58,515 nucleotides of DNA from an uncultured Planctomycetaceae bacterium (GCA_964480425.1 CAYZPY010000001.1:1-58515), one strand, 5' to 3'; counted from the stretch's first letter, positions 11,461 through 53,843 are shown. The notes: generated from the letters alone by a model not told the origin. Program-made: numbers and translations.

Positions 11461-11500
11461 AGCGCAATTGCGTTTATAGTGCAATTGCGTTTCATTTTTT
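11461..11500. terminator. Hairpin formed by two copies of the palindrome GCAATTGC (17-bp period), flanked by A/T tracts. It is either an intrinsic terminator after the fucosidase genes or an operator upstream of the beta-helix gene.
   Basis: The sequence is agcGCAATTGCgtttatagtGCAATTGCgtttcatttttta. That gives a 9-bp perfect stem (11463-11471 with 11481-11489), extendable by G.T and A.T pairs, and a 9-nt loop. A T-rich run lies on the plus side and an A-rich run on the other. It sits 20 nt beyond the GH29 stop at 11512. Confidence 0.4.
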
Positions 11501-11511
11501 ATTTATTAATT

Positions 11512-13080: not shown

Positions 13081-13099
13081 TTTCGCGTTCCTCTTGTTG

Positions 13100-33219: not shown

Positions 33220-34812
33220 TTATCTTTTGAACATGATGAGATTATCGCCCCTGTAGATGCGGGTGAAATCCGTGCCGAACGCCACACGAGCGCAAATCAT
33301 CCGGGCGTGTCGTTTCGAGGCGTACAGGCCTGCGTCGATAATTATGTGGGTCAGGTCCTGCGGCTCTTTCAGTAATGCGAGCATTCGCAGGTGTTTTTTC
33401 GAGGTGGGGGTGCTCTGTTCGTATGCGGGCACGCAAGGCCTGGAGGTGAGAAAGTGTACGACCCTGAGGTTGTCGCGGTCGATGCCGATGACGACTTTTT
33501 CGTCGTCCGGCGTCTCGTTGATGATTTCGCTTACGGCGAACCAGTCGGCGTACCGGCCCGATTTGATTATCTGATGGTAGTGCAGGGTGTAACTTGCGTA
33601 TGTGTAATAGAAGGCGTTGCGGAAAAGTCGGGGCGCGTTGCATGCGATGATGACCGCCGCCATGACGGTGGCGCCCCTCAGGTAGTCCCTGGGGCGCAGA
33701 TGCCTGTTTTTTATTTTCGTCGTGTAGCGCAGCGCGGCGAACAATCCGTCAAAACCCAGCAGCAGCAGCATCGGCGCGACCGGCATGAGGTATCTGGGGC
33801 GTACTGCCCTTTTGCCTCCCATTACGCACAGCACCACAACGTAGAGCACCAGTATTAACGGTATTGACCGTATTCCCCGTCGCCACGTCCTGACGCCCCC
33901 CACGACCGCAAGCGCAAGGACGACAATTCCCACAGGCAGCAGGGCCTCCTGGCTGTTGAGGGTCTCGGCGTAGGCGAAGGGCAGTCTGAGGAAACCCGCA
34001 CCGACGCGGAACAGTGTCTTAAAGGGGCTTCGCTGCGTGTTCCTGACGATGTCTCCCACGTAGAGTGGGGTTTTTTCGCTGAACAGATACGCAAGTATGC
34101 ACAGCGCTCCGCATACGATCGCCGACGGCACCAGCACCGCCGACGCCTTTGCGAGGCGCCGTTTGGGCGTTATTTGTCCCCGGCGGCGGTCGAACACCAG
34201 GCCTACCGCCACCGTGCAGACCAGTGCCACGCCCGGCGCGCGTATCGCCACGGCAACGGCCAAGATCACCCCCGCAAGCGCAGGCCAATACAGACTTCGA
34301 CCCCCGCGGGTGTATATGAGGTGCAGCGCCGCCCAGAAAAGCGCGGTGAAGGAAATGTCGGTGAGAATCACGTGCGAGTGGTGGTAATAGGTGTAGGAGA
34401 AACCGGTGGCCAGTGTTATCGCAAACGCGGTGCGCCTGTCGCTGAGGTGCGCGCAGAGGTGATAGATGAACCACAACCCCGTCAGACCCCACAGCGTCAT
34501 CACCAGGTTGGGCGCCCAGAAGTTTTTCCCGAACAGCAGTTCGATTCCCGCCAGCATTGCGGGCAGCCCCGGAGCGACCTCGCTGTTGACGCGCCCGTTG
34601 AATACGTACCCCTTTCCCTCGGCAAGTGAGCGCGCCAGCGTCATGTACAGGGCGCTGTCCGGCGTGGGCCACCATTTGCCGCGGACGCCGACGGCGTATA
34701 TCAGCACCAGTGACGCCGCGGCGGCTAACAGGTGCCATCGGCGGGGGGGGAAATCCGCCAGCCAGTTCGCAGGTGCGTCGGTTTCCGGCAGGTCGCTCGG
34801 CGTACGGGCCAC
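33220..34812 (-). CDS. GT-C fold glycosyltransferase (PMT_2 / ArnT-like, GT39/GT83-type), copy a
   Basis: 530-aa polytopic membrane ORF with a GTG start. The first periplasmic loop motif is WWPTPDSALYMTLARSLAEGKGYVF, about 11 hydrophobic segments follow, and there is a ~150-aa soluble C-terminus. It is paralogous to 37919-39643. Confidence 0.8.
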   Translation of the reverse strand: MARTPSDLPETDAPANWLADFPPRRWHLLAAAASLVLIYAVGVRGKWWPTPDSALYMTLARSLAEGKGYVFNGRVNSEVAPGLPAMLAGIELLFGKNFWAPNLVMTLWGLTGLWFIYHLCAHLSDRRTAFAITLATGFSYTYYHHSHVILTDISFTALFWAALHLIYTRGGRSLYWPALAGVILAVAVAIRAPGVALVCTVAVGLVFDRRRGQITPKRRLAKASAVLVPSAIVCGALCILAYLFSEKTPLYVGDIVRNTQRSPFKTLFRVGAGFLRLPFAYAETLNSQEALLPVGIVVLALAVVGGVRTWRRGIRSIPLILVLYVVVLCVMGGKRAVRPRYLMPVAPMLLLLGFDGLFAALRYTTKIKNRHLRPRDYLRGATVMAAVIIACNAPRLFRNAFYYTYASYTLHYHQIIKSGRYADWFAVSEIINETPDDEKVVIGIDRDNLRVVHFLTSRPCVPAYEQSTPTSKKHLRMLALLKEPQDLTHIIIDAGLYASKRHARMICARVAFGTDFTRIYRGDNLIMFKR

Positions 34813-35098
34813 GGTGTATTCGCTCTTTCTGTCGGACGGGTTCGATGCCCGGTCCGGCTTGTGAAATTTGATTCTCGAACCGCTGGCGGGCGCGCCGCGC
34901 CGTGTTTAACGGCTTCCGGCGAGGCGCCTCGGGTTTTCGCAGACAATATATATCATCGCCGCCGGTCTTTATCAACACCTGTCAGGTCGGCGACGCACGG
35001 TTGGCGTGGAGATTTATTTTCGCCGATGTCACCGGCGGGGTATTTGTGTATATTTGCCTCGGGGCGAACCCGGCACTCGAGGCGATGCGACGATTGTT

Positions 35099-36034
35099 AT
35101 GTCCGACAAGATAAAAATTCTGTTCGTAGGCGGAAGCGGGCGGGGGGGAAGTACGCTCGTGGGCAGATTGCTGGGGCGCCTGGAGGGTTTTGTCTCTGTG
35201 GGGGAGGTCTGGCTGATGTGGGAGAAAAGTTTCTGGAAAAATGAGCCGTGCAACTGCGGCGAGCCGTTCAAGTCGTGTCCCTTCTGGTCGCGGATTGTCC
35301 GTCGGGCCTATGGGGGTGCCGATGCGGTTGACGGGCGGTCGATGGACCGGAAATGGCGCACTTGCATGTCGGTGCGGCACGTTCCGGCGCTGCTGTCGCG
35401 GCGAAAGACGCGCAGATACCGCCGGCGCCTGGAGGATTACACACGCGACCTGCTGCGCTTCTACCGCGCCGTTAAGGATGTTACCCGGTGCGAATATATA
35501 GTGGACGCCTCGAAGGTGGGCTTCCACGGGCTGGTGCTGAGCAATATGCCCCAGATCGAACTGTCCGTGGTGCACCTGGTGAGGGATTCTCGCGCGGTGG
35601 CGTATTCCGAGCGGCGGCGCCGGCGGAGAATACCGCTGGACGGTTATCAGGACGCGGGATTTCTGATTCGACGCTCGCCGGTGAACAGCGCCGCGCGGTG
35701 GATTATATCCCACGGGCTGGTCCGCACGCTGCGGGGCCGCAGCAGGCATTACGATGTAGTGCGTTACGAGGATTTCACCCGCCGGCCTCAACAGACGCTC
35801 AACGAGATTGTAGCGAAGATCTGCGGCCTGGAGCGCCCGCCGGGACCGGTGGAGGGCAATACGGTTACGTTCGAAAACGATCACGTTCCCTCGGGCAATC
35901 CGTCGCGGTTTCAGATGGGTCGTGTGGACATATCCCCGGACGTCGAGTGGCGCCGAAAGATGCCGCACGCGGCAAGGGCGATTGTGACGGGAATGACTTT
36001 TCCGCTGCTGATTCGGTACGGATACGAATTATAG
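35099..36034 (+). CDS. PAPS-dependent sulfotransferase-family protein
   Basis: The ATG at 35099 gives MSDKIKILFVGGSGRGGSTLVGRLLG, a 5'-PSB P-loop-like motif. The 3'-PB-like motif is VVHLVRDSRAVAYS. No signal peptide is present, so it is probably cytoplasmic. Confidence 0.8.
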   Translation: MSDKIKILFVGGSGRGGSTLVGRLLGRLEGFVSVGEVWLMWEKSFWKNEPCNCGEPFKSCPFWSRIVRRAYGGADAVDGRSMDRKWRTCMSVRHVPALLSRRKTRRYRRRLEDYTRDLLRFYRAVKDVTRCEYIVDASKVGFHGLVLSNMPQIELSVVHLVRDSRAVAYSERRRRRRIPLDGYQDAGFLIRRSPVNSAARWIISHGLVRTLRGRSRHYDVVRYEDFTRRPQQTLNEIVAKICGLERPPGPVEGNTVTFENDHVPSGNPSRFQMGRVDISPDVEWRRKMPHAARAIVTGMTFPLLIRYGYEL

Positions 36035-36050
36035 GCGCCGGTGCGCCCGG

Positions 36051-37067
36051 TTATTGTGGTATTTTAGCGCCGGGTCGTGCGGCATGATTTTTTCGTCGTG
36101 CAGGCCTCAGCAGCACGCCCCAGCCCAGCAATCCGGCGGCCGCGTCGGTGGTTATCAGCATCAGGCGCAGCATGATCACCAGCATCGCGCTGTTTGCGGC
36201 GCCGATTACGTCCGTAAGCAGGATGATGTAGATGCTTTCCTGCACGCCTATCCCGGCCGGGGCGAAGAACGCCGCCACGCCCGCCACGGCGGCAAGGACC
36301 GTTGCCCCTGCCACCGGAAGCACGTCGCCCGCCGGCACGTCGGTAAGGGCGCAGGCGACCATCCACGTGGTGAAACACGCCGCGGCGTATCGCAGGGCGA
36401 CGTAACCCGCCCCGGCAAGGTACCAGCGCGGGTCGGGACGGATCGCCAAAGGCCTGCGCCGCAAACGCAGCAGAATCCAGTCGAGCACCCTGATGAACAC
36501 CGCCGGATGCAGAAACGCCACGCCGGCGACGATGACGGCGGCGGATAACAACCACCGAAGGGTCGAAAACTCCATTACCTCATGGAGGACCAGCAAAGGC
36601 AGCGCCAGTATCACGCCCAGGGCCACCGATATCGCGGTGGTCAGCACCGACAGCACCATCGCCACCGCCAGGCGTACGCCGTGGCGCACCAGCAGGACCG
36701 TCATGCCCACGCTGGCGCTGAACTTGACCGGAAGGTACCGCGCCAAAGAAGCGGTCCACGTAATGCCAGCCACCTGCCGCAGCGTCAGCCGCTGGTCGAA
36801 CGCCGTGATCATCGCCCTGTTGGCCTGGACGGTGAACAGGCGGTTGGCAAGCACGCCTGCTGCGGCGGCGGCAAGGTAAATGTAATCGATGCTGACGGTC
36901 GCCCAGCGGATATCGGCGAACCTCTTGTATATTTCCCTGCCCACGAAGTACACGATCACCGCGGTCAGCGCCAGGTTAATCGCGCCGAGGGCGAATCGTC
37001 TTTTTGCAGGCCTTGCGAGGTTGAACCGGCCTGGTGATTCGTTGTTGTCGTTTGTAGCGGGCGGCAT
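36051..37067 (-). CDS. Flippase-like membrane protein (LPG_synthase_TM / UPF0104 family), copy 1
   Basis: 338-aa ORF with ~8 TM segments. The N-terminal pattern (…LALTAVIVYFVGREIYKRFADIRW…) and C-terminal pattern (…APAGIGVQESIYIILL…) are as in MprF-type flippase domains. Confidence 0.75.
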   Translation of the reverse strand: MPPATNDNNESPGRFNLARPAKRRFALGAINLALTAVIVYFVGREIYKRFADIRWATVSIDYIYLAAAAAGVLANRLFTVQANRAMITAFDQRLTLRQVAGITWTASLARYLPVKFSASVGMTVLLVRHGVRLAVAMVLSVLTTAISVALGVILALPLLVLHEVMEFSTLRWLLSAAVIVAGVAFLHPAVFIRVLDWILLRLRRRPLAIRPDPRWYLAGAGYVALRYAAACFTTWMVACALTDVPAGDVLPVAGATVLAAVAGVAAFFAPAGIGVQESIYIILLTDVIGAANSAMLVIMLRLMLITTDAAAGLLGWGVLLRPARRKNHAARPGAKIPQ

Positions 37068-37177
37068 ATTTGTTTCTGCGTGCGAGTACGGGAAATTATA
37101 AGTTCCCTCGCCGGCGCGCCCAAGGCGATAAAAGTCCGGGCGCTATTGCGTTGTCCGCCGGCAAACTGCGCCGGCGG

Positions 37178-37831
37178 TCAGGATATGCGGATTTTCGCGA
37201 CCTGGGGCGGGGGGGCATTGTAGAGTTGGGGGAACCGCCGCCGCACTTTGCGTTTCAGTTCATCGGTCACCTTCAGGTCGAGGACCAGGACGTGTGAGAT
37301 TTGCGGGCATCGCCGGAACAGTTCGGCCCCAAACGGCAAGAACCGCGTTTCGCCGTGGACCGGGCCGTAGAATCGCAGCTCGGCGACGCTGTAGAGTCGC
37401 ACGTGCTCGGGTCGGTCCGACCAGGTTCGCATGCCCAAGAGTTTATTGATGCAGTCCCACGGCGAATGGCGGTTGGGCGTGATGGTTACTATCCGCCCGC
37501 CGCACCTGGTGATGCGGATCCATTCCGCCAGGGCCGGTCGTGTCGTGTGCTCCAGCACCGCGCACGCCCAGACCGCGTCGAAGGTGTCGTCAACGAAGGG
37601 CGTCCGGGCGCAGTGCGCCGCCACACGCGTTCCGGAAAGGTTCGCCAGCGCCTCTTTGCGAATGTCCAGCGAGATTACCCCGTTAGTCCCGCGGTTAAGG
37701 TGGCTATGGAACAGTCCCTTCCCGCAGCCGCAATCCAGTATTCGCCCGCGCAACTGCCCCGCCAGCGATACGCGCAGTTTCGAGTCGAAAGATTGCATGA
37801 TTTCATCTCTGTGGACGATAATTTTCGTCAT
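37178..37831 (-). CDS. Class I SAM-dependent methyltransferase
   Basis: SAM motif I is ILDCGCGKG, followed by FDAVWACAVLEHT. I prefer the ATG at 37831 (MTKIIVHRDE…), because the ORF-track start at 37882 is a TTG. Confidence 0.85.
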   Translation of the reverse strand: MTKIIVHRDEIMQSFDSKLRVSLAGQLRGRILDCGCGKGLFHSHLNRGTNGVISLDIRKEALANLSGTRVAAHCARTPFVDDTFDAVWACAVLEHTTRPALAEWIRITRCGGRIVTITPNRHSPWDCINKLLGMRTWSDRPEHVRLYSVAELRFYGPVHGETRFLPFGAELFRRCPQISHVLVLDLKVTDELKRKVRRRFPQLYNAPPPQVAKIRIS

Positions 37832-37918
37832 CGTCGGCTCACCAGGCGCGACGGCGTTCCACGCCGCGGTGTAATAAAGCAACGGCCAAAAAGTCGGCGG
37901 CCCGCCTTGCCGCTTCCG

Positions 37919-39643
37919 CTAATGCCCGGCGGTGTTTTCGACGCCCGGCACGCTCCTGACCTGCACGGGTGCGGATGTATCCAGTTCGATGCGCACGAGA
38001 TTGTCGTTTTTCAGTTCGTAAAGTTCGAAATAAGGCCCGGGGGGCGGGACCTTTCGGCCGGTCAACATCTCGTGCAGACGCCTCGAGCGAAAGTGCCACA
38101 GGCGCCACGGCACCACCGGGGGACGGTAAACGTAATATTTTACGGAGTTGTCCCTCAGCCACAATCGCAGTTTGGTTCTGTGCGGCTGGTCGGAGATGTT
38201 TTTCGGCACGACGCGCACGGTGCGGTTTGTGAGTAAGTTCAGCGCGCGGAGGGCGAAGGAATTCGCCTTTCTTGTGCCGAGGTTCACGTAGTTGTATCCC
38301 ACGGCGACTTCGTCGTCGCCTACCGCGGCGCTGCGAAGCACTTTGGCCGCCCTGACCAGCGAGTCGCATTGCCCGGCGTGATACGCCCCGTAGAAGTCGC
38401 CCCGTCGGATGACCCACGCGCTTATGCCCCAAAGGGGCAGGTTGCACAACACGATGCTCGCCACAAACGCCCCCGCCAATCCGCGCCAGGTCATCGTCCA
38501 CCATCGGCGTGGTATGACCGCCCCTACCGAGGCGGCGCCCCTTGTCACACCCAGTATCCACAGCGGAGCTATAGGCGCAAGGTACCGGGTGTTCGCCCGC
38601 ATCCAGATGAAAAAAAGGATCACCAGGTAAACCAGCGCGCCCGCCCACATCCAGTTTAATTTTCTGACCCGGCAAAGCGCGTCAACGGCGAACATCGCGG
38701 TGACCAGCCAGCCCAGCGCGCAGGCGACGAACGCCGACACGGGCAGGTGATTTGTCATCTGTGCAGGCGGCCAGAAAAAATGCCCCAGCCAGTCTCCCGA
38801 TCGCGCCAGTCGGCGTTTGAATTTGCACATTTCCTGCTCGCTGTCGGGCACGACCCTTTTTTTAATGTTCTTGGGTCTGCTGTAGGTGGTCTCGATGGAT
38901 GTTAACTTGTCGATTTTAAGACGGGTCTCGGTACGTGCGAGCCCGGCCAGCGCGTTGTTTTTAACCACGGTGCGCAGTGCGAAGAACGACACCAGCATTG
39001 TGGCGGCGGTAAGCAGTGCCGCCAGCCACTGCCTGTCGAGACGGGGGGTAATACGCCCTGCCAGCAGCGCGGCGACAACCAGCGGGCCGAATATTATCCC
39101 CGCCCACCTGATGGCGGGCAGCGCCGCCGCCAGCAGGATAATCGCACCCATGCGCAGGGGGGACCGCTCGCCCTGGGCGAACTGTACGCCCAGCAGGAGG
39201 CACCCGGCCATTATCAGCGAGAAGAACGCGTCGCTGTACGGCTTGTTGGAGAGATAAAAGCAGTTATAAAGCAGGGCGGACAGGAGCACCAGTCCGAACG
39301 CTTTTTGGGGCGATACAAACCGGCACAGGATGCGATGCCACAGGGTCAACGCGCCCGTCATGCATGCCAGCGGCACGGCGTTGAGAAACGCAAAGGACGG
39401 GCTGATTCGCATCAGGCCCGCCAGCATAAAAGGCCAAAGCGGCGCGGCGGGCACGACAGGAAGGTTGTTGAAGGTGTATCCCCGGCCCTGGAAGATGTTT
39501 CTGGCCAGGGACAGGTAGAAGGTGCTGTCGCTGGCGGGTATCCACTGCCCGGTCCACAGCGGGGCGTAAAGGACCGCCGCCGACGCCGCAGTGATGAGTG
39601 TCCAGCGGGCTGTGGGGCGACTGTGGGTTTTTATCGGTTCCAT
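37919..39643 (-). CDS. GT-C fold glycosyltransferase (PMT_2 / ArnT-like), copy b
   Basis: 574-aa polytopic ORF. Its loop motif QWIPASDSTFYLSLARNIFQGRGYTF parallels copy a. It has a large soluble C-terminal domain. Confidence 0.78.
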   Translation of the reverse strand: MEPIKTHSRPTARWTLITAASAAVLYAPLWTGQWIPASDSTFYLSLARNIFQGRGYTFNNLPVVPAAPLWPFMLAGLMRISPSFAFLNAVPLACMTGALTLWHRILCRFVSPQKAFGLVLLSALLYNCFYLSNKPYSDAFFSLIMAGCLLLGVQFAQGERSPLRMGAIILLAAALPAIRWAGIIFGPLVVAALLAGRITPRLDRQWLAALLTAATMLVSFFALRTVVKNNALAGLARTETRLKIDKLTSIETTYSRPKNIKKRVVPDSEQEMCKFKRRLARSGDWLGHFFWPPAQMTNHLPVSAFVACALGWLVTAMFAVDALCRVRKLNWMWAGALVYLVILFFIWMRANTRYLAPIAPLWILGVTRGAASVGAVIPRRWWTMTWRGLAGAFVASIVLCNLPLWGISAWVIRRGDFYGAYHAGQCDSLVRAAKVLRSAAVGDDEVAVGYNYVNLGTRKANSFALRALNLLTNRTVRVVPKNISDQPHRTKLRLWLRDNSVKYYVYRPPVVPWRLWHFRSRRLHEMLTGRKVPPPGPYFELYELKNDNLVRIELDTSAPVQVRSVPGVENTAGH

Positions 39644-39695
39644 TGTCTGATTCTTTTTTGTCCGCGGCGCGATGGTGAAATATTTCGCACGCGCC

Positions 39696-41411
39696 TCACA
39701 GGGGCGATTTGCCCTGGGCGACGCGGATTATGGTGTTATACATGAATTCCATTACGTCCTGACTGTCGTTGAGCAGTTTCCGGCGTCTGCGCGTCCACAG
39801 GTCCGCCGAGCGGGGGTCTTGTAGAATTCGCTCTGCCCGGACTACGCCTTCGCTGAGCGAATCCAGGTTGACCACCAGTGAGTAATCGCGCTGGAGTGCG
39901 TAAATGTACCCGGTCTTGAGCTTGTTGCAGTATACCGAGGGCACGCCGAGGGCGGCGGCCTCGGCGGCCATGCTGCCCCCGTCGCCGATGTAGAGGCGCG
40001 CCCCGGCCAGTATGTCGTGCATGTGGTGGGGCGCTATATTGCATTTGTATTTGTCCAGGGGCGCGCTGAGCGGCAATTCGGACGTTATAAGCACCCTCGC
40101 ATATTTCGAGAGACGATTAACCACCTCGACGATTTGTCCTTTTGTGGGTCCTGACAGTCCGATGTCGTGCCCCGCCTGCCAGGCGACCAGTCGGAAAATT
40201 ATATACGGCTTGTCCTGGCCAAGCCCGTACCTGACCGGTATGCCCGGGTCCGGTTTGAAATATTTCGGCGACAGGTATGACAGGTGCGGCGTGCCGCGGT
40301 ACCTGATATGTCCCGGGTCGTGGTTCCTTAAGTATCCCGAGCCCGTGCATATGTAATCGGCGAACCGCGGTCCGATTTCCATCTCGAACTTGGCGTGTTC
40401 GGTGTCCTGAAACACAATAGAGGACGTACCCAGTATCCTTGCGATGGGCGAAAACCACAACCCCGTGCGATCAACCATGACGTGAGGTCTGAATCGTCTT
40501 GCCACGATCAGCAGTCTTATCGCCCGGAACGACAGCTCCAGACCCAAGGCCATCAGCCCGGGGCGCTGGTGTGAGAGGCACACGTTTGGAATATCGTATT
40601 GTTCCAGCAGTTCGAGAGTGATGTCCTTTTTTCGCGAGGTCACCAGCACGCGATGCCCGGCCTGTTCGAGTCGCTTTATGCAGTTTTTGAAGAAGTGAAC
40701 TTGTGCCGGGTGCGTAACGTCGAACATTATCCTCAGCCCGCCCGCCCCGCTCGCCGTTGCCCGCGTGGCGAAGGGCTTTCCCGACGCGGCGCGCACCGTC
40801 GCCGGTCTGGGTCTGGCCTGAACCACCAGCCAGGGGAAAGGACAGGACACTTCCCGGACGTCGGCGTATCGGCTTACGAATCTGACGAATGAGCGCTTGG
40901 ACCAGTGCTGCACGTGTCCGGGCGTGTTGCCCGCATCGCTGAGGTGCATCCCCCGCAGCATGTTGCAGATTCGCCATATCGGCTCGCGGGGGACGCTCAG
41001 GATAATACGCTCCCTGGCCACGCGGCAGAGTTCGCGCATGCCCGCCTCGGGGTCGTCGAGGTGTTCGAGCACCTGCGAGCAGACTGCGGTGTCGAACGAA
41101 TCGTCGCCGAAGGGCAAATCGTAAATCGAGCCCTCGACCGCCCTGACGTGCGGGGAGCATTTTTTGAGTCTTGGCAGGCACTGGGGGTTGATTTCCAGGG
41201 CGGTTACGCCGCGCCTGAGGGTCCGGGGCGAAAAGAACCGGTAATGGTCGCCCTCGGCGGCGCCCACGTCGAGAATCTCCCCGGTGGCGCGGTCCAGCAT
41301 GCGCTGGAATCTCTTAAAGAACCTCCGCAGCAGCAGACGCTCCAGCGGATGGGTGGTGGCGTACTTGCTTTCTATCATCTCGACGGATTGCTGTTTGGTT
41401 TGGCTTGTCAT
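39696..41411 (-). CDS. Bifunctional fusion: N-terminal SAM methyltransferase (Methyltransf_11-like) plus C-terminal DUF354 (GT-B / epimerase-like) domain
   Basis: 571-aa ORF. The N-terminal part has ILDVGAAEGD…FDTAVCSQVLEHL. The DUF354-type start MFDVTHPAQVHFFKNCIKRLEQAGHRVLVTSRKKDITLELLEQYDIP begins near aa 219. Confidence 0.8.
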   Translation of the reverse strand: MTSQTKQQSVEMIESKYATTHPLERLLLRRFFKRFQRMLDRATGEILDVGAAEGDHYRFFSPRTLRRGVTALEINPQCLPRLKKCSPHVRAVEGSIYDLPFGDDSFDTAVCSQVLEHLDDPEAGMRELCRVARERIILSVPREPIWRICNMLRGMHLSDAGNTPGHVQHWSKRSFVRFVSRYADVREVSCPFPWLVVQARPRPATVRAASGKPFATRATASGAGGLRIMFDVTHPAQVHFFKNCIKRLEQAGHRVLVTSRKKDITLELLEQYDIPNVCLSHQRPGLMALGLELSFRAIRLLIVARRFRPHVMVDRTGLWFSPIARILGTSSIVFQDTEHAKFEMEIGPRFADYICTGSGYLRNHDPGHIRYRGTPHLSYLSPKYFKPDPGIPVRYGLGQDKPYIIFRLVAWQAGHDIGLSGPTKGQIVEVVNRLSKYARVLITSELPLSAPLDKYKCNIAPHHMHDILAGARLYIGDGGSMAAEAAALGVPSVYCNKLKTGYIYALQRDYSLVVNLDSLSEGVVRAERILQDPRSADLWTRRRRKLLNDSQDVMEFMYNTIIRVAQGKSPL

Positions 41412-41414
41412 TTT

Positions 41415-42527
41415 TTATTCGGCCCGCGCCGCGCCGGGCGCGCCGGCGCGACGTGCGGGCTTTTTTATCCTCGCCGCCACCAGCAGTATCGCTCCGACTA
41501 CGGCCAGGAGTATGTCCGCCGTTGTCCTGAACAGTCTCATGCCCACCGCAAGCATGGCGGCGTGCACGCCGACCATCGGGGTGAACAGCGCCAGTATGGC
41601 GAACTCCTGTATACCAATGCCGGCCGGTATGAACAAGACCATGAATCCCAGCGTGTTTCCAAGCGCAAGCGCCGAGACGCAGGTCGCAAGCAGCCGGGGG
41701 GATATTTCGCCCAGCGATCGCGCCATCAGCCATACCCCCGCGCCCATCAGGACGAACTGCACCAGCAGCGCCGCGGCGGGCGCGATGTAATTGCGGAACC
41801 CCGGCAGGGTCTGGATGGGCGCCATTCCCAGTCGCTTAAGGGCGAAGTTCATCATCGCCGAGAATATCCGCGGATGGAGGCACGCCAGTGCGATAATCAT
41901 CAGCGCCGGGCACCACGCCCACGCCAGCGGCAGCCGGCGCGCGTATGGACCCCACAGCATCAGCGGAAAGCCCGTCAGCAGCCCCACCACGATGTAAAGC
42001 CCGTCGGTGATTATTATGCTGCCAAGCGCGCTTTTGGAGTCCACCCCGTGCGTCCTGAGGTAATACACCATTCCCAGCGGGCTGGCGACCTTGCCCGGCA
42101 CGTATTTGCCCAGCTGTGCCACCATTATTCCCCCCGCCAGTGCTCCCCAGGGCAGATCCCTGCATAGTCGCCTGAGCATCAGAATGTACGCCAGGGGAAG
42201 GATGCTCCACGCCGCCACAACGCACCCCAGCGACGCCAGCAGATACGGGATGCTCACCTCGAGGCGTTCCCAAGATATCCGCCCCAACTGGTCCGCCAGC
42301 GCCCTTGCCACGAAATACGCCACCACGGCGAAGACGGCGATCTTCAGCATTATTATTGCGATTCTGGCGGGCCAGGAGCGTTTCTTTTTGACCTCGGCGC
42401 CCGCCGGGTGCGTCTGACCCTGCGGGAGCGTGTGTTTGCGTTCGTCGCGGTCCGGCTGATTGGCGTTTGTCTGCATGATAAGCACTTGCGGCGCGTGTCG
42501 GGGCGGCGGGCTGGATTCATTCGACAT
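41415..42527 (-). CDS. Flippase-like membrane protein (LPG_synthase_TM / UPF0104 family), copy 2
   Basis: 370-aa ORF with ~8 TM segments (…IPAGIGIQEFAILALF…). It overlaps the GT2 stop by 11 nt, and there is a 3-nt gap to the next gene. Confidence 0.75.
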   Translation of the reverse strand: MSNESSPPPRHAPQVLIMQTNANQPDRDERKHTLPQGQTHPAGAEVKKKRSWPARIAIIMLKIAVFAVVAYFVARALADQLGRISWERLEVSIPYLLASLGCVVAAWSILPLAYILMLRRLCRDLPWGALAGGIMVAQLGKYVPGKVASPLGMVYYLRTHGVDSKSALGSIIITDGLYIVVGLLTGFPLMLWGPYARRLPLAWAWCPALMIIALACLHPRIFSAMMNFALKRLGMAPIQTLPGFRNYIAPAAALLVQFVLMGAGVWLMARSLGEISPRLLATCVSALALGNTLGFMVLFIPAGIGIQEFAILALFTPMVGVHAAMLAVGMRLFRTTADILLAVVGAILLVAARIKKPARRAGAPGAARAE

Positions 42528-43566
42528 TATCGCCGGGTGTTTTTTCGGCGCGGGATTTTACCGGGGCGTGTCCGGATTGCGGGCTGCCCAGCGAACTGCT
42601 CCTGAGAGTGCGGTCCAGACTGCGGTTGCTTTCCATGTCGAACCACATCGCGAACAGTGTGAACTGGATGAAACTTATGGTGCAGAACACCCACGCCAGG
42701 GCGTTGAGAGGCGGAATCTCCCCGGCGGATATCCAGATCCAGATCATTCGCACGAACAGCACAAAACCCAGCACGGTCAGCGTCATTCCGCACAGATAAA
42801 AGAACACCAGCGGGTGAAAATCGTGGACGACGTATTTGCGCCACATCCGCCGGCAGAAACTTTTGAATATCAACCACGTCATGCGGGGGACGACCGCGGC
42901 CAGGCGCATCTTGGAGACCTCCCCGACGTTGTAGATGGGCTTGAGCGGCACGTCCGCCACGCGGAAGTTATAAATGTTCAGGCGCACCAGCAGGTCGTTG
43001 GGGTATCCGTATCCGTGATACAGGTCGTCCAGGTCGATGGTCTCAAGCGCCTCGAGACTGATGGCGGTGAAGCCGGTCTGGGAATCGGCAATGTGCCAGT
43101 ATCCGCTGGCTATCTTGGTGAGCATGGACAGGAAGGCGTTGCCCAGGTAGCGTTTTGTGGGGATCAGTTCCCACGCCTTGCGGTAGTAGAGGCGATTTGC
43201 CTTTGCGTAGTCTGCCTGCCCCTTTGCCACCGGCGCGACGATGAACCTCAACTGCCTGGGGTCCATCTGCCCGTCTCCGGCCATCACAGCGGCGACTTCG
43301 ATGCGGCGACTTATCGCCTCCCGGTATCCGGTGCGGACGGCGGCGCCGACACCTTGGTTCTTCTCGTGGCGGATCAGCAACATCCTGTCGGCGGCGCTAT
43401 TGTCCCGGATGTGCCGCTCGACGACGTCGGCGGTCTGGTCCGTGCTGGCGTCGTCAACCACGATAACCGCGTCCACGAAGCGGGGCATGCTCTCCAGAAC
43501 GCCGGGGACCTGGTCCTGTTCGTTGTGGCACGGGACGACGACGGCTATTGTTTTGCCTTCATACAT
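42517..43566 (-). CDS. GT2 polyprenyl-phosphate glycosyltransferase (GtrB / ArnC / DPM1-like) with two C-terminal TM helices
   Basis: 349-aa ORF with VVVPCHNE, VVDDASTD, HEKNQGVGAAVRTGY and MAGDGQMDP. The C-terminal hydrophobic pair is FHPLVFFYLCGMTLTVLGFVLFV and LAWVFCTISFIQFTLFAMW. Confidence 0.9.
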   Translation of the reverse strand: MYEGKTIAVVVPCHNEQDQVPGVLESMPRFVDAVIVVDDASTDQTADVVERHIRDNSAADRMLLIRHEKNQGVGAAVRTGYREAISRRIEVAAVMAGDGQMDPRQLRFIVAPVAKGQADYAKANRLYYRKAWELIPTKRYLGNAFLSMLTKIASGYWHIADSQTGFTAISLEALETIDLDDLYHGYGYPNDLLVRLNIYNFRVADVPLKPIYNVGEVSKMRLAAVVPRMTWLIFKSFCRRMWRKYVVHDFHPLVFFYLCGMTLTVLGFVLFVRMIWIWISAGEIPPLNALAWVFCTISFIQFTLFAMWFDMESNRSLDRTLRSSSLGSPQSGHAPVKSRAEKTPGDNVE

Positions 43567-43776
43567 GGCTGACGCATTAAACGGATGAATTTGCCCTGAA
43601 TCGCTTAATAAAATCTCCGTCTCGGCAAGCGTGCGAATACTATCGCCGGGCGGGTGATTTTACAAGACGTAATCCCGCCTACGGCGCCGGGGGGGGCGAA
43701 TATTTGCATTGCCGGGCGAACGTTATTATCATTCCGGATCCCGGTCCGGCGGGACGGAGCGTAAATTCGGATTGGC

Positions 43777-44910
43777 ATGAAACCTTACCGTATTTGTACA
43801 AGGTGCGTCAGCGACACTTCCCTTCCGGGAATAAGGTTCGACCCGGCGGGCGTTTGTCAGTATTGCCGCGCGCACGACGAACTGGAAAAACGCTACCCGC
43901 TCGGCGCCGAGGGCGAGCGCCGCCTAAAAAGACTGGTGGAAAAAATAAAGCGCGCCGGGCGGAAAAAGCCCTACGACTGCATCGTGGGGGTAAGCGGCGG
44001 CAGGGACAGCACATATTCGCTCTACCGCGCGGTGCAGGTTGGCCTTAGGCCCCTGGCGGTCCACTTCGACAACGGGTGGGACATAGAACTGGCCGTGCGC
44101 AACATAAAGAACGCCTGCACCAGACTCAACGTGGACCTGTACACGCACGTGGCCGACTGGGAAGAGTTCAAGGACCTCCAGATCGCATTCCTGGAGGCGT
44201 CCGTTCCCGAGGCGGAGATACCCACGGACGTTGCGATTCACGGCGCGCTTCACCAGGCGGCGGCGCGCGAGGGCGTCAGGTACGTGGTAATCGGGCACTC
44301 ATTTAGAACCGAGGGCATCGCGCCCATCGAATGGACGTATATGGACGGAAGGTACATCCGCAGCATCCGTCGAAGGTTCGGCCGGAAAAAACAAAAAACC
44401 GTGCCGAATTTCACCATCGGGCAGTATTTGTATTACAACGTCATCAGGCGCATAAAGGCGGTTCCCATTCTGAATTACGGGCGCTACCGCCACGACGAGG
44501 TGATGAGACTGCTGGAGGACGAACTCGACTGGAAATATTACGGCGGGCACCATCACGAATCCTCATACACGCACTTCGTCCAGACCGCGCTGTTCGGGCC
44601 TAAGTTCGACATAGACAAGCGACGCCTGGAACTGTCGGCACTGGTGCGCTCCGGACAGCGCACGCGAGACGAGGCGCTTCAGGAACTGCGGACCCAGACG
44701 TACGAAGCCGACGAGGAACTCGTCCAGTACGTTCTGAACAAGCTGGGCCTGACGCGCGACCGGTGGGAGGAGATACTCTTGGCCCCGCCCAAGTCCTTCC
44801 ACGACTACCCCAGTTACTATCCCTTCATCCGGGCGTTTCGGCGCCCGCTGAAACTGGCATGCAAACTCGGACTGCTTTCGCCTATACTTTACTTCAAGTA
44901 CCTGGACTAA
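43777..44910 (+). CDS. N-acetyl sugar amidotransferase (WbpG/WbuX/PseA-type PP-loop ATPase)
   Basis: 377-aa ORF with an N-terminal zinc ribbon (CTRCVSDTS…GVCQYC) and the PP-loop VGVSGGRDSTY. Confidence 0.88.
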   Translation: MKPYRICTRCVSDTSLPGIRFDPAGVCQYCRAHDELEKRYPLGAEGERRLKRLVEKIKRAGRKKPYDCIVGVSGGRDSTYSLYRAVQVGLRPLAVHFDNGWDIELAVRNIKNACTRLNVDLYTHVADWEEFKDLQIAFLEASVPEAEIPTDVAIHGALHQAAAREGVRYVVIGHSFRTEGIAPIEWTYMDGRYIRSIRRRFGRKKQKTVPNFTIGQYLYYNVIRRIKAVPILNYGRYRHDEVMRLLEDELDWKYYGGHHHESSYTHFVQTALFGPKFDIDKRRLELSALVRSGQRTRDEALQELRTQTYEADEELVQYVLNKLGLTRDRWEEILLAPPKSFHDYPSYYPFIRAFRRPLKLACKLGLLSPILYFKYLD

Positions 44911-44962
44911 GCGCGGCGATTTATTACGGCGCGCAAAGGTGCGACGGCCGCGATATCCGAAA

Positions 44963-45742
44963 ATGGTCAAGGTCAGAGTAATCCCCTGCCTGCTGCTCAA
45001 AGATACGGGAATGGTCAAGACCACCCGTTTCGAGGACCCGGTGTACCTCGGCGACGCCATCAACATCGTCAAACTCTTCAACGACATGGAGGTCGACGAA
45101 CTGGGCGTGCTTGACATATCCGCCGGACCCGACGGGCGCGGGCCTGACTTGAACCTGCTTTCCAGCATCGCATCCAACGCATTCATGCCGCTCAGCTACG
45201 GCGGGGGCGTCGCCCGCCTGGACGACGCCCGCGAGGTCCTGCAACTGGGCTTCGAGAAGGTCATCATCGGCACGGCGGCAGTGGAGAATCCGGACCTCGT
45301 CAACCATGCTGCCGAAGAATTCGGCGCCCAGAGCGTGGTGGTCTCCATAGACGTGCGCAAGCGCCTTTTCGGGCGGTACGAAGTGTGCGTAGCCGGGGGC
45401 AGGCGCAAGACGGGCAGGGAACCCGTCGCACACGCCGTGGAGATGGCGCGCCGCGGGGCCGGGGAAATCCTGCTCACCTCGGTGGACCGCGACGGCACGA
45501 TGTCCGGATACGACTTGGAACTTATACGACAGGTTTCAGACGCGGTGGATATTCCCGTAATCGCATCAGGCGGGGCGGGCAACGTGGAGCACTTCGCACA
45601 GGCGGTGCGACAGGGCGGGGCCTCTGCGGTGGCGGCGGCGAGTTGTTTCGTATTCCATGGCCGCAGGAGGGCTGTGCTGGTGAACTACCCCCAAAGGGAC
45701 GAACTGCGCAAGGTTTTCAGTTCCGACAATAATAGTACTTAA
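44963..45742 (+). CDS. HisF-like cyclase subunit (WbuZ / HisF2-type glycosyl amidation-associated protein)
   Basis: The ATG at 44963 gives MVKVRVIPCLLLKD…; other motifs are VDELGVLDISA, VSIDV, GAGEILLTSVDRDGTMSGYD and IPVIASGGAG. The ORF-track start at 44939 is a GTG. Confidence 0.9.
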   Translation: MVKVRVIPCLLLKDTGMVKTTRFEDPVYLGDAINIVKLFNDMEVDELGVLDISAGPDGRGPDLNLLSSIASNAFMPLSYGGGVARLDDAREVLQLGFEKVIIGTAAVENPDLVNHAAEEFGAQSVVVSIDVRKRLFGRYEVCVAGGRRKTGREPVAHAVEMARRGAGEILLTSVDRDGTMSGYDLELIRQVSDAVDIPVIASGGAGNVEHFAQAVRQGGASAVAAASCFVFHGRRRAVLVNYPQRDELRKVFSSDNNST

Positions 45743-45743
45743 T

Positions 45744-47042
45744 TCATCTGGTCAATCGCAAACACTTACGCACAAACGGTATGTGCAGAATTACGGCCGC
45801 CGCCGCCAGCACACCAACGCCCAGTGCCAATCCCGTAAGCAGCGCCCGGTTCTCGCTGTCGGAGGGCGACGGACAGGCCTTGCCGTTGTTCCGCAGCAGT
45901 TCGCCCTTGCGGTGCTCCGGGCGCGAGTTGTGCATTATGTTGTCTGCAATGACGATGGGCCTGTTTTCGCCGGTGCGGTCGTCGAGGTCGACGACGACGT
46001 TTTCCAGCACGTTGTCGGTCAGTATCACCCCGCCCGACGCTATCCGCAGCCGCGAGGGCCGACCTGCATTGCCGCCGAAGACGTTGTTGCCCGAGACGAC
46101 CGCGCCCCGCCCGCGGATGTCCATCGCTGTTGTGCAGGTTCCGCCCTCCTCGACCACGAGTATGTTGTCGGCTATGACGTGCCGGTCGCTCCCGACCCAG
46201 GAGCGAAAGCCGATGTCCAGGCGCCCGCCGCGCTTCACGCGCACTATGTTGTCCGACATGATGACGTTGTTCGCCTCGTCGCTGCCGACGGCGCAGTGGG
46301 TGCGGCCCGCGATGACGACGTAGTTGTCGCGGATGACCGCCGGGCCTGTCAGCACCTCCACGGCGTCGTCGCCGGCGTCGCCAAGGACGTTTCCATAAAC
46401 CTGCACGTTAATCCCGTCCAGCATGACGCCGAGACTACGCGCATTCATCACGCGGCAGTGGCGCACCGTGATGTCGTGCACAGCCCTGCCCGGCGCCCCG
46501 CCCGGCGAGCGGTAATACGCCTTGATGCCGCAGTACTCGAAGCGATCGTGCGGGATTTGCGGGTCGCCGGCGTGGATTGGGTTCTCGCGACGGTTGGCGT
46601 CGATGGCAAGGTCGCGTATGGTGACGTGTCCCACGCCGTCGCCGATGATTCGTATCACGTTGGTGTTCTGCCCCGCCGCCTGGACCAGGCGTGTGGCGTC
46701 GCCCCGCCCGGCGAGCGTAACGTTGCTGCGTGCGATTATCACGCCGCCCGGCGCACCGGGGGTCTTTCGGATGTCGAATGTGCCTTCTGCCAACTTCACG
46801 ACGCCGCCGGTCGACGGTAGCGAGCGGATCGCCGCGTTAATCTGCTCCTGGTCGCCCTTCCCGTCGCAGGCGAAGTCCGCCGCGGACCTGCTGCGCGCGC
46901 CCGAATCCCCGGCTGCCACTAAGACGGTCGGCGAACCGTCGGCAGCGCGGGACGTCGCACAGCCCGCCACTACCACGAACAACGCAAGACCGGTGGTTGC
47001 GAGTTTTCCGGCCTGTGGGCGAATTGAACCGGTCCGTTTCAT
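45744..47042 (-). CDS. Beta-helix repeat protein with an N-terminal lipobox and a C-terminal hydrophobic helix plus basic tail
   Basis: 432-aa ORF with the signal/lipobox LALFVVVAGC. Parallel beta-helix repeats are present (…VTIRDLAIDANRREN…, …DITVRHCRVMNA…, …VIRDNYVVIAG…). The C-terminus is LLTGLALGVGVLAAAAVILHIPFVRKCLRLTR. Confidence 0.75.
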   Translation of the reverse strand: MKRTGSIRPQAGKLATTGLALFVVVAGCATSRAADGSPTVLVAAGDSGARSRSAADFACDGKGDQEQINAAIRSLPSTGGVVKLAEGTFDIRKTPGAPGGVIIARSNVTLAGRGDATRLVQAAGQNTNVIRIIGDGVGHVTIRDLAIDANRRENPIHAGDPQIPHDRFEYCGIKAYYRSPGGAPGRAVHDITVRHCRVMNARSLGVMLDGINVQVYGNVLGDAGDDAVEVLTGPAVIRDNYVVIAGRTHCAVGSDEANNVIMSDNIVRVKRGGRLDIGFRSWVGSDRHVIADNILVVEEGGTCTTAMDIRGRGAVVSGNNVFGGNAGRPSRLRIASGGVILTDNVLENVVVDLDDRTGENRPIVIADNIMHNSRPEHRKGELLRNNGKACPSPSDSENRALLTGLALGVGVLAAAAVILHIPFVRKCLRLTR

Positions 47043-47221: not shown

Positions 47222-47295
47222 GGGCCGTTAGCTCAGTTGGACAGAGCGTCTGCTCGACACGCAGAAGGTCACTGGTTCAAGTCCAGTACGGCCCA
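47222..47295 (+). tRNA. tRNA-Val (anticodon GAC); no encoded CCA
   Basis: Hand-folded cloverleaf: acceptor GGGCCGT/ACGGCCC, D arm GCTC-AGTTGGACA-GAGC, anticodon arm TCTGC-TCGACAC-GCAGA, variable AGGTC, T arm ACTGG-TTCAAGT-CCAGT, discriminator A. Loop positions 34-36 read GAC. Position 33 reads C rather than U (see findings). Confidence 0.85.
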
Positions 47296-47324: not shown

Positions 47325-47353
47325 AGGGCCGGTCTTTTGGCCGGCCCTGTTTT
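47325..47353. terminator. Rho-independent, probably bidirectional terminator between the tRNA and the convergent GGDEF gene
   Basis: AGGGCCGGTC-TTTT-GGCCGGCCCT forms a 10-bp stem (one G.U pair) with a 4-nt loop, followed by GTTTT. An AAAA run precedes it, so it also reads as hairpin plus U-tract on the minus strand. Confidence 0.6.
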
Positions 47354-48849: not shown

Positions 48850-48919
48850 TCCTTACTGTCTTTGGCGCAAGGGTCGGATAAACGCCCGTTGTTGTGTCCG
48901 CCGTGCGAAGACCTCACGT

Positions 48920-49960: not shown

Positions 49961-50201
49961 GTGACGTTCTCCAAGATAAAGTTGTACTTTTATCCCCAAC
50001 TGCCCCAACAGTGTTATCTTATTTCGGCAAGACCAGCGGTCGGCTTGAAATAGTAAATATTTTTGCCGGAAAATTTTCCCCGGGCGGATTTTCCCCCCGA
50101 CCGGGGCGCATTTGCCGGCGATACCGACTCGCGGCGCGCGGGTTTAATGCGTACAATGCGGTTAATCCGTCGCAATGCCGCACGACATAAAGGATAAACA
50201 C

Positions 50202-53759: not shown

Positions 53760-53843
53760 TGCAATGACCGGTGTGTGCTTAAAGCAGGCGGGTTCGGGGT
53801 GCCGTTTGCTGCACGCGGGTATTGTTACGACGCGAGGATTGGC

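Follow-up and report, generated by a model that had tools for sequence, protein, structure and literature searches.

A planctomycete gene cluster with candidate decorate-and-flip cassettes for extracytoplasmic glycosylation on a polyprenyl-monophosphate carrier

What does a bacterium make with a gene cluster that joins one predicted polyprenyl-phosphate sugar synthase to two flippase-like proteins, two GT-C glycosyltransferases and a set of sulfo-, methyl- and amidino-tailoring enzymes? Such a cluster, of about 14 kb, lies on a 58.5-kb contig from a metagenome-assembled genome (MAG) of an uncultured planctomycete, and the whole contig (the window, below) was analyzed here computationally. The original prediction was that its eleven contiguous genes load a sugar onto a polyprenyl phosphate, flip it and transfer it to an acceptor in the periplasm. 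The logic of a family 2 glycosyltransferase (GT2), a flippase-like protein and a GT-C transferase is still the most economical reading, and we consider it reasonably probable that the cluster encodes extracytoplasmic glycosylation on a polyprenyl-monophosphate carrier, organized in "decorate-and-flip" cassettes, with putative acceptor glycosylation by the GT-C enzymes. The loading and flipping of a single sugar is probably too simple a scheme, since a GT-B enzyme is integral to the cluster and flippase-like (PplT) domains are fused to decorating enzymes in related loci; these features suggest that a lipid-linked saccharide is first extended and decorated and only then flipped.

All eleven predicted open reading frames (ORFs) are present, and almost every family assignment made for them stands. 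In what follows, GT-C#1 and GT-C#2 are the two GT-C genes, FLP1 and FLP2 the two LPG_synthase_TM/PplT genes, and L-numbers denote related loci. The features are listed with window coordinates, strand, predicted identity and its basis; SAM is S-adenosylmethionine, PAPS is 3'-phosphoadenosine-5'-phosphosulfate and aa is amino acids.

33220-34812, minus strand: GT-C#2, ArnT/PMT_2-like GT-C transferase, 530 aa (PMT_2 Pfam match and AlphaFold2 model)
35099-36034 (ORF opens at 35006), plus strand: PAPS-type sulfotransferase, predicted cytoplasmic (Sulfotransfer_3)
36051-37067, minus strand: FLP2, LPG_synthase_TM/PplT membrane protein, 338 aa (marginal PF03706 match and paralogy to FLP1)
37178-37882, minus strand: SAM-dependent methyltransferase, 234 aa (Methyltransf_11)
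37919-39643, minus strand: GT-C#1, predicted member of a GT-C family outside Pfam, 574 aa (homology to GT-C#2)
39696-41411, minus strand: methyltransferase-DUF354 fusion, 571 aa, or 560 aa with the NCBI start (Methyltransf_11 and DUF354)
41415-42527, minus strand: FLP1, LPG_synthase_TM/PplT membrane protein, 370 aa (PF03706)
42517-43566, minus strand: GT2, predicted polyprenyl-phosphate sugar synthase type, 349 aa (Glycos_transf_2)
43567-43776, no strand: divergent intergenic region of 210 nt between the GT2 operon and the WbuX/HisF2 pair (sequence)
43777-44910, plus strand: WbuX-family N-acetyl sugar amidotransferase, 377 aa (TIGR03573)
44939-45742, plus strand: AglZ/HisF2 acetamidino-modification protein, 267 aa (NF038364)
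45744-47042, minus strand: exported protein, possibly beta-helix, 432 aa, membership in the system doubtful (weak Beta_helix match)
47222-47295, plus strand: tRNA-Val(GAC), right boundary marker, itself no functional part of the system (ARAGORN and Rfam, 67.6 bits)

The cluster is self-contained between phoR, which ends at 33208, and tRNA-Val. Both flanks are unrelated to it, with pstSCAB, phoU and phoBR on the left and the CBS-GGDEF and CBS-HD-GYP genes on the right. Six of its genes form one minus-strand run whose members overlap or are separated by no more than 111 nt; the overlap of 11 nt between GT2 and FLP1 and the gap of 3 nt between FLP1 and the methyltransferase-DUF354 gene, both noted in the original prediction, are exact for the ORF coordinates. 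The divergent intergenic region holds one sigma-70-like match (43703-43732, plus strand), which is a consensus match only. At the right boundary, a GC-rich hairpin (47325-47348, 10 pairs followed by a T-run) lies just beyond tRNA-Val. No att-like repeat of the tRNA-Val 3' half occurs elsewhere in the window and no integrase was found there; these negatives, the lack of tRNAs in related loci and the lack of a shift in base composition led us to reject a mobile island.

Such tailoring genes might also be expected in a piece of a conventional O-antigen, capsule or exopolysaccharide locus, with the Wzx/Wzy or ABC-transporter genes at another site. O-antigens and capsules typically carry methyl, sulfate and acetamidino modifications, the names WbuX and WbuZ come from O-antigen loci, and our data are one contig of a genome. 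This reading is nevertheless poorly supported and, we think, very unlikely. Pfam scans of the contig's large ORFs found no member of the Wzx/Wzy/Wzz, Wzm/Wzt or WbaP/WecA families anywhere in the 58.5 kb, in agreement with the original prediction, so that polymerase, exporter and initiating transferase are all missing from it; the flanks are the phosphate (pst-phoU-phoBR) and the tRNA-Val, GGDEF and HD-GYP genes just named; the orthologous locus L004 stops at the same phoR boundary; and no such genes were noticed beside the cassette in >90 related loci, as surveyed with our own profiles only and no Wzx/Wzy screen. A monophosphate-linked route fits a contig that has no initiating phosphoglycosyltransferase, Wzx/Wzy or ABC exporter.

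The first component of that route is GT2. Its product matches Glycos_transf_2 at 72.6 bits (Pfam) and has the two C-terminal helices predicted for it, at residues 254-272 and 287-305 by hydropathy. The best NCBIfam models are AglJ (67 bits, cut-off 325) and PpgS (46.6 bits); both scores are far below the equivalog cut-offs, so GT2 is of the AglJ/PpgS type and not a member of those families. The ArnC model gives 19 bits against a cut-off of 529, and the closest relatives in the PDB are the P. furiosus dolichyl-phosphate-mannose (Dol-P-Man) synthase (5mlz, E 8e-7) and ArnC. Its predicted activity is that of a membrane-anchored enzyme of the polyprenyl-phosphate sugar synthase type.

GT-C#2 matches PMT_2 at 37.9 bits (Pfam cut-off 26.1). 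The best Foldseek match of its AlphaFold2 model (predicted local distance difference test score, pLDDT, 87.7; predicted template modeling score, pTM, 0.88) is ArnT (5f15; E 5.7e-9, TM-score 0.55, probability 1.00), with further matches to STT3/PglB/AglB, DPY19, ALG12, AftA/B and EmbB. This structural check had been proposed with the original prediction, and by the model GT-C#2 has a GT-C fold of ArnT size with a small C-terminal alpha/beta domain. Invariant in its family are W47, P49, D52 and S53 in the first loop, T151 and D152, R191, and R340 and Y341. PDB sequence searches with GT-C#2 and its family profile gave nothing usable.

GT-C#1 was initially described as a GT-C/PMT_2 transferase. 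It has no match in Pfam, PMT_2 included, or in NCBIfam, and so it is a GT-C only through its homology to GT-C#2. The paralogy claimed for the two is clear from BLASTP (E 4e-14) and from a profile-profile comparison of their families with hhalign (E 3.7e-41 over 489 columns, probability 100), which also aligns the first-loop W-x-P-x-x-D-S motif of the two families, whose acidic residue is invariant in the GT-C#2 family (D52) and nearly invariant in the GT-C#1 family (D39). By eye, neither protein has a WWDYG-type oligosaccharyltransferase motif. A word-indexed search returned only GT-C#1 itself; that it is an orphan can be rejected, as 638 relatives came up at E<=1e-3 in a full HMMER search; 175 of them reach E<=1e-30, the alignments span the whole length of the proteins, and identity is about 27-40% among the matches listed. 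Judged from these alignments, GT-C#1 belongs to a sizeable GT-C family that Pfam misses.

What could carry the lipid-linked sugar from GT2 to these enzymes? The GtrA, SMR (ArnE/F) and MATE flippase families are all absent from the cluster ORFs, and the gaps between these are too small for a small gene. The candidates are FLP1 and FLP2. FLP1, as predicted, matches LPG_synthase_TM (PF03706, 36.6 bits against a cut-off of 33.4, profile positions 1-302); it also matches the flippase part of the bifunc_MprF model (positions 3-303, E 4e-6) and has about 8 hydrophobic segments. FLP2 is its paralog (28% identity over 311 aa, E 9e-25). In L004, the PplT encoded next to GT2 shares 63% identity with FLP1, and the best external matches of FLP2 include the sulfotransferase-adjacent PplTs of L004 (8881-9921), L048 and L078 and a fusion protein in L063; because of these matches we take the two as partners of GT2 and of the sulfotransferase, respectively, and not as redundant copies.

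Related loci encode PplT domains fused to a sulfotransferase (L063 6029-8158), a GT9 enzyme (L052 1715-4243), a polysaccharide pyruvyltransferase (L097 1582-4236), a GT4 enzyme (L004 2326-4602) and a PD40/Tricorn-like domain (L041 11108-13228), and all five fusion genes adjoin GT-C genes of the families studied here. Fusion to saccharide-decorating enzymes fits the principle of MprF, in which the same protein modifies a lipid and flips it. PplT domains fused to glycosyltransferases have already been catalogued (bioRxiv 10.1101/2022.03.11.483950).

The PplTs also give rise to the main alternative, a membrane glycolipid pathway of the Gpg/Hex type, because every PplT context that is characterized or has genetic support has to do with membrane lipids: MprF, gpgSDF (GT4, deacetylase and COG0392, for glucosaminyl-phosphatidylglycerol, GlcN-PG) and hexSDF (PMC12713373). 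The GT-B enzyme would then glycosylate phosphatidylglycerol or diacylglycerol, the head group would be sulfated, methylated or amidinated, and PplT would flip the lipid, while the GT2/GT-C pair would add a further periplasmic sugar or act on a different target; a charged glycolipid, not a decorated polymer, would result. Fusions of PplT to GT-B domains (L004; bioRxiv 10.1101/2022.03.11.483950) would suit such a pathway, as would the GT-B enzyme found in each locus of the GT-C#2 set that has a PplT and the cationic charge that, we infer, an acetamidino group would give, as deacetylation does in GlcN-PG. Its difficulty lies in the GT-C enzymes that occur in every such locus, in a GT2 of the Dol-P-Man synthase/ArnC/AglJ type with a transmembrane hairpin, in the 11-nt overlap between the FLP1 and GT2 genes, in the pyruvyltransferase domain to which PplT is also fused (L097), and in the lack of a deacetylase or an acyltransferase in the cluster. 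GT-C enzymes use polyprenyl-phosphate-linked donors, and the pyruvyltransferase family acts on polymer repeat units. Overall, we consider the glycolipid pathway unlikely, and prefer flipping of polyprenyl-phosphate-linked intermediates.

The tailoring enzymes are expected on the cytoplasmic side, since the sulfotransferase, the methyltransferases, WbuX and HisF2 have no hydrophobic helix; PAPS, SAM and ATP are cytoplasmic. The methyltransferase at 37178-37882 matches Methyltransf_11 at 50.5 bits and has an ortholog in L004 (E 1e-74), and the fusion protein matches Methyltransf_11 at 55.1 and DUF354 at 56.3 bits, just as both had been described. The DUF354 domain is modeled with a GT-B fold (pLDDT 94.1). 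We favor a role as glycosyltransferase over an epimerase-like one, because GT4 and GT9 glycosyltransferases fill its slot in relatives; a literature search found nothing relevant to the DUF354 family. The same fusion is present in L001, L003 and L017. In L001 (4575-7549; GCA_034190305.1) it stands by itself, divergent from a UDP-GlcNAc 2-epimerase (Epimerase_2) gene and with no GT2, PplT or GT-C nearby, so it is not strictly tied to the cassette.

The sulfotransferase assignment holds narrowly (Sulfotransfer_3 at 27.4 bits against a cut-off of 27) and for the plus-strand ORF 35006-36034, to which the original prediction is here corrected; ORF 34982-35968, which overlaps it on the minus strand, matches nothing in Pfam or NCBIfam and was rejected. 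Translation probably starts at 35099, as an end-to-end alignment with a homolog begins at residue 32. The protein is 34% identical over its full length (E 1e-55) to an L005 sulfotransferase encoded beside a paralogous GT-C, and its sequence contains GGSGRGGSTL and HLVRDSRAVAYS, which we take to be PAPS motifs resembling the 5'-phosphosulfate-binding (5'-PSB) and 3'-phosphate-binding (3'-PB) motifs. In the PDB it finds a weak match, the CurM sulfotransferase domain (4gox, E 0.07).

The amidotransferase/HisF-like pair is confirmed by curated cut-offs on both sides. WbuX scores 230 bits with TIGR03573 (cut-off 203), matches a Legionella N-acetyl sugar amidotransferase (PDB 8wex, E 4e-7) and contains CxxC...CxxC and the PP-loop SGGRDS; AglZ/HisF2 scores 340.8 bits with NF038364 (cut-off 310) and 221 bits with His_biosynth, and no copy of it was found in any related locus. 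No glutamine amidotransferase family, and hence no HisH-like glutaminase (WbuY/AglY), appeared in Pfam scans of the contig's large ORFs; the gene for it may lie outside the contig, or the system may take up ammonia directly. Beyond this pair, the 432-aa protein had been called a beta-helix lipoprotein. It has an N-terminal hydrophobic stretch with a lipobox-like VVAGC, seen by eye, and a C-terminal hydrophobic helix (401-419); its Beta_helix match is below threshold (E 0.006, 16.6 bits). It has no PDB or NCBIfam match and no homolog in related loci.

Is this gene set more than a chance neighborhood? For the GT-C#2 family, a narrow search pattern gave 33 GTDB loci, and 29 distinct loci of at least 8 kb were used for counts; for the GT-C#1 family, a search with a 12-sequence alignment gave 69 metagenome loci, to which one Logan contig was added, and 17 of the loci are long. 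Close relatives of the cluster proteins all come from Planctomycetota or Phycisphaerae MAGs, and the GT-C#2 family was found, within this GTDB search, solely in Planctomycetota MAGs. A GT2 homolog lies within 10 kb of the GT-C#2 relative in 26 of the 29 loci; by our own rough estimate, a single-copy gene would fall into a 20-kb window of a 5-Mb genome ~0.4% of the time. Close GT2 orthologs (57-68% identity), nearly all with C-terminal hydrophobic segments, are found in about 16 of the 29 and are better conserved than the GT-Cs themselves (34-56% identity). Synteny in relatives had been proposed as the test against chance juxtaposition; the core is kept, and on the strength of this synteny the linkage is not due to chance, an explanation that is poorly supported.

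Three loci illustrate the pattern. In L003 and L017 a tight five-gene row encodes the methyltransferase-DUF354 fusion, GT2, WbuX, PplT and GT-C, with WbuX (237 bits with TIGR03573 in L003) straight after GT2, which it overlaps by 14 nt, and PplT on its other side. Directly upstream of the L003 row (4735-9181) are genes for a PAPS_reduct protein, a PALP enzyme, a split thiamine diphosphate enzyme (N and C halves) and an aldehyde dehydrogenase; we presume from its resemblance to sulfonate (cysteate/sulfopyruvate-type) metabolism that this set is another sulfur link to the cassette. A 691-aa "WbuX-like" match in L040 has class-II glutamine amidotransferase domains; it is probably no WbuX ortholog and was set aside. 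In L004, from a MAG with 56-68% protein identity, the cluster occupies the same place in the chromosome, next to phoR-phoB-pstSCAB-phoU. This locus retains orthologs of GT2, FLP1, both methyltransferase domains and GT-C#2 (56% identity, beside phoR), and a PplT-GT4 fusion takes the place of DUF354. Its second GT-C and its sulfotransferase belong to the same superfamilies as those of the window but are not their orthologs. Variable surface-glycan loci in which the function classes are conserved show this pattern.

Around GT-C#1 the recurring order is GT-C#1, X, PplT. X is a GT9 (heptosyltransferase-family) enzyme in 18 loci, and PplT is its immediate neighbor, before or after it, in 13 of these; X is a sulfotransferase in 7 (6 with PplT) and DUF354 in L045, L046, L066 and L091; L041 has DUF354, GT2 and two PplTs. 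Among the long loci, PplT is near the GT-C#1 relative in at least 10 of 17 and a second GT-C adjoins it in 9 of 17. The duplication of flippase-like and GT-C components against a single GT2, which had seemed an oddity, is explained by these patterns: GT2 and GT-C#2 form a tight pair in Planctomycetota, GT-C#1 with a cytoplasmic transferase and PplT forms a separate conserved triplet, and the window has two recurrent cassettes side by side.

The same patterns allow for a variable surface-glycan island made up of two or three independent cassettes, each decorating the envelope separately: GT2 with GT-C#2 (and WbuX), methyltransferase-DUF354 with GT-C#1 and PplT, and the sulfotransferase with PplT, brought together because the phoR/tRNA-Val site would be a hotspot for glycan-gene swapping. 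GT2 and GT-C#2 have no PplT with them in most Planctomycetota loci, many metagenome loci have GT-C#1-X-PplT with no detected GT2, the locus is bounded by a tRNA gene, and the window and L004 share flanks and outer genes with non-orthologous occupants of the GT-C#1, sulfotransferase and GT-B slots. Yet L003, L017 and L041 combine elements of all the cassettes in single tight rows, six of the window's genes are one minus-strand run, and the integrase, att repeat and compositional shift of a mobile hotspot are missing. We hold separate cassettes to be plausible rather than probable; they are compatible with the mechanism proposed below and would mainly alter the number of products.

In that mechanism, GT2 would first load a sugar onto polyprenyl phosphate at the cytoplasmic face, as its family suggests. 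Since WbuX, which is linked to GT2, requires an N-acetyl group, an N-acetylhexosamine is the probable sugar. Still in the cytoplasm, the GT-B enzyme (the DUF354 domain) would extend this sugar or work alongside, the two SAM methyltransferases would methylate it, WbuX and HisF2 would turn its N-acetyl into an acetamidino group, and the PAPS sulfotransferase would sulfate it; the substrate may be either the nucleotide sugar or the lipid-linked sugar, and we propose no order of modifications. The two MprF-like PplTs, FLP1 with GT2 and FLP2 with the sulfotransferase, would then carry decorated lipid-linked intermediates to the periplasmic leaflet. Finally, the GT-C enzymes, whose fold is shown by the GT-C#2 model and by homology and whose chemistry is predicted, would use the flipped donor or donors, via the first-loop residues D39 (GT-C#1) and D52 (GT-C#2), to glycosylate an envelope acceptor.

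Several observations weigh against this mechanism. For the flipping step, the earlier designation of FLP2 as flippase-like stands by its paralogy to FLP1, and its PF03706 score (33.0 bits) is 0.4 bit under the cut-off of 33.4; FLP1 and a 9-sequence PplT profile match no PDB sequence. The experimentally supported substrates of MprF are aminoacyl-phosphatidylglycerols, and we know of no PplT/COG0392 protein shown to flip a polyprenyl-phosphate sugar; GpgF and HexF, the closest genetic cases, concern membrane glycolipids (PMC12713373). The fold matches of DUF354 are split equally between GT1-type glycosyltransferases and UDP-GlcNAc 2-epimerases, and owing to the latter resemblance its role may lie in making a nucleotide sugar and not in extending a lipid-linked sugar. 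Nor need the eleven genes be one pathway, as the GT2-GT-C#2 pair and the GT-C#1-X-PplT triplet are also found apart; in the locus middle, GT-C#1 and the sulfotransferase proved not to be orthologous to their counterparts in L004, and HisF2 and the 432-aa protein are not conserved across related loci. Missing from the window, too, are a HisH/WbuY glutaminase and any genes for nucleotide sugars or PAPS synthesis.

Candidates for the acceptor are lipid A or core, a periplasmically built glycan, a glycolipid or a protein, and the available hints diverge. In L005 (10001-14564; GCA_964472875.1, CAYYMD010000009.1) a GT-C#2 paralog (50% identity), a 220-aa protein, a GT2 and a sulfotransferase are inserted in the division and cell wall (dcw) cluster, between murG-ftsW-mraY-murF-murE and murC-murB-ddl; the GT2 there is soluble, of the TuaG/EpsE type, with no transmembrane helices. 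This insertion, in one genome, hints at a cell-wall-related target in that lineage. L020 (9956-14023) encodes a 1355-aa protein with GT-C#2-like PMT_2, GDSL/SGNH and DUF459 domains, that is, a GT-C joined to modules like acyl-esterases or acyl-transferases that are presumably periplasmic. The GT9 partners, for their part, recall lipopolysaccharide core enzymes.

A wider claim can be made only tentatively, and we think it rather doubtful: that PplT domains mark a widespread class of decorate-and-flip modules in which each cytoplasmic decorating enzyme (GT2, GT4, GT9, DUF354, sulfotransferase or pyruvyltransferase) has its own PplT and hands its product to the non-Pfam GT-C family. If true, this would be the Planctomycetota counterpart of archaeal dolichol-monophosphate glycosylation, and its product a sulfated, methylated, acetamidino-bearing envelope glycoconjugate that is chemically not yet described.

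The rest of the window indicates a polysaccharide-degrading bacterium, with genes for a sulfatase, two fucosidases, an arabinofuranosidase, a GH43 enzyme, an arabinose isomerase and giant beta-helix proteins. Two giant secreted proteins encoded at 50175-57503 (1194 and 1242 aa) are probably lyases or hydrolases of polysaccharides; their segments are of the beta-helix, DUF4955/DUF6298, heparinase II/III-like, CHB_HEX_C and PA14 types. Of two adjacent minus-strand genes at 47386-50008, one (487 aa) joins tandem CBS domains to GGDEF and the other (362 aa) joins them to HD-GYP-type HD_5; the two look like a matched cyclic di-GMP synthase and phosphodiesterase with the same sensor module. An Opp-like operon includes an 1100-aa ORF (4000-7302) with SBP_bac_5 (residues 155-574) and BPD_transp_1 (887-1094), an unusual binding protein-permease fusion. 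The ORFs at 9538-11283 and from 57603 to the end have no significant Pfam match (DUF4955 at E 0.025 for the former). At 11479-13134 the longest ORF, on the plus strand, has a third-position GC of 0.53 against ~0.8 in its neighbors and no Pfam match; the true gene is more likely to be ORF 11512-13080 (522 aa), which overlaps it on the minus strand.

How, then, does the cluster compare with known systems? It shares with the Gtr (GtrA/GtrB/Gtr*), Arn (ArnC/ArnE-F/ArnT) and GT136 pentofuranose systems (PMC11127046) an anchored GT2, a putative flippase and a GT-C encoded together, and this three-component logic tolerates interchangeable flippase families such as SMR/GtrA and MATE (PMC11127046). The likeness to Arn extends to ArnT as the best fold match of GT-C#2 and to ArnC among the closest solved relatives of GT2. 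Unlike Gtr and Arn, the cluster has MprF-like PplTs as flippase candidates in place of GtrA, SMR or MATE proteins, it has two of them and two GT-Cs, and its integral parts include a GT-B enzyme, a sulfotransferase, methyltransferases and an amidotransferase. It is only distantly ArnC- and ArnT-like, and Pfam and NCBIfam scans found no ArnA, ArnB or ArnD family member as in the Arn lipid A pathway.

Mycobacterial arabinan and mannan assembly (Emb/Aft/Mpt/PimE) likewise uses several paralogous GT-Cs, often in tandem, which act outside the cytoplasm with polyprenyl-phosphate monosaccharide donors, and AftA, AftB and EmbB are among the fold matches of GT-C#2; the GT-C families and the envelope are different, and the cluster has no donor synthesis of the decaprenylphosphoryl-5-phosphoribose (DPPR) type. 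GpgSDF of P. aeruginosa, which makes GlcN-phosphatidylglycerol, and HexSDF of C. difficile are glycolipid operons with a predicted COG0392 flippase (PMC12713373). They too combine a cytoplasmic GT-B, an enzyme that alters an N-acetyl group and COG0392 in one operon, with a cationic sugar as product. In contrast to the cluster they have no GT2, GT-C, sulfotransferase or methyltransferase, their deacetylase removes the N-acetyl group and makes no amidine, and their lipid is a phosphatidylglycerol or diradylglycerol glycolipid; the GT-B of the cluster is DUF354 and not GT4, and it has no deacetylase.

The best-studied counterparts of nearly every component are found in archaeal Agl N-glycosylation (AglJ, AglD, AglS/AglB, AglP, AglX/Y/Z, Agl30/31), which includes AglP-type methylation and in which glycans are built on dolichol monophosphate before GT-C transfer. 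AglJ is the top NCBIfam match of GT2, AglZ/HisF2 and the AglX-type WbuX are above their cut-offs, and relatives of DUF354 include many archaeal proteins. The C-terminal domain of AglD is the PplT/COG0392 domain (PMC5898192), and the Agl30/31 sulfotransferases act on the glycan, in a pathway with both cytosolic and membrane sulfotransferases (PMC11980604). The cluster differs in its bacterial host, in its PMT_2/ArnT-like GT-Cs, in an AglJ score far under the cut-off, in having no HisH/AglY and in giving no indication of a protein acceptor.

The original prediction also called the system undescribed. For the core this is too strong, given the PplT-glycosyltransferase fusions already catalogued and an archaeal neighborhood of arCOG00899 (MprF-like flippase), arCOG00563 (PMT/STT3-like) and arCOG00897 (AglD-like GT2) predicted by Makarova, Galperin and Koonin in 2015, who linked the same three families and inferred that COG0392 flips lipid-linked saccharides (PMC5898192). 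That prediction covers archaea only and has no sulfotransferase, WbuX, DUF354 or GT9 partners and no decorating-enzyme fusions, and it is this wider gene set that is new. New here are a bacterial (Planctomycetota) version, a non-Pfam GT-C family, a fixed GT-C-X-PplT cassette in which X can be exchanged, PplT domains fused to a sulfotransferase, a GT9 enzyme and a pyruvyltransferase, and the link to WbuX, sulfation and DUF354.

These points bear on several gaps. The proteins that move polyprenyl-phosphate sugars across the membrane are largely inferred, even in Gtr and Arn, and the PplT fusions and conserved gene orders offer a concrete candidate, a PplT that has one particular cytoplasmic transferase and one particular GT-C as partners. 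At least 175 sequence clusters make up the GT-C family that Pfam misses, and DUF354, a domain of unknown function, gets a place in a defined pathway. The envelope chemistry of Planctomycetota is poorly known, and the cluster, all known members of which come from uncultured organisms, predicts a sulfated, methylated and amidinated envelope sugar. Overall, the cluster resembles Gtr and Arn in its logic, and family by family it is closest to archaeal Agl.

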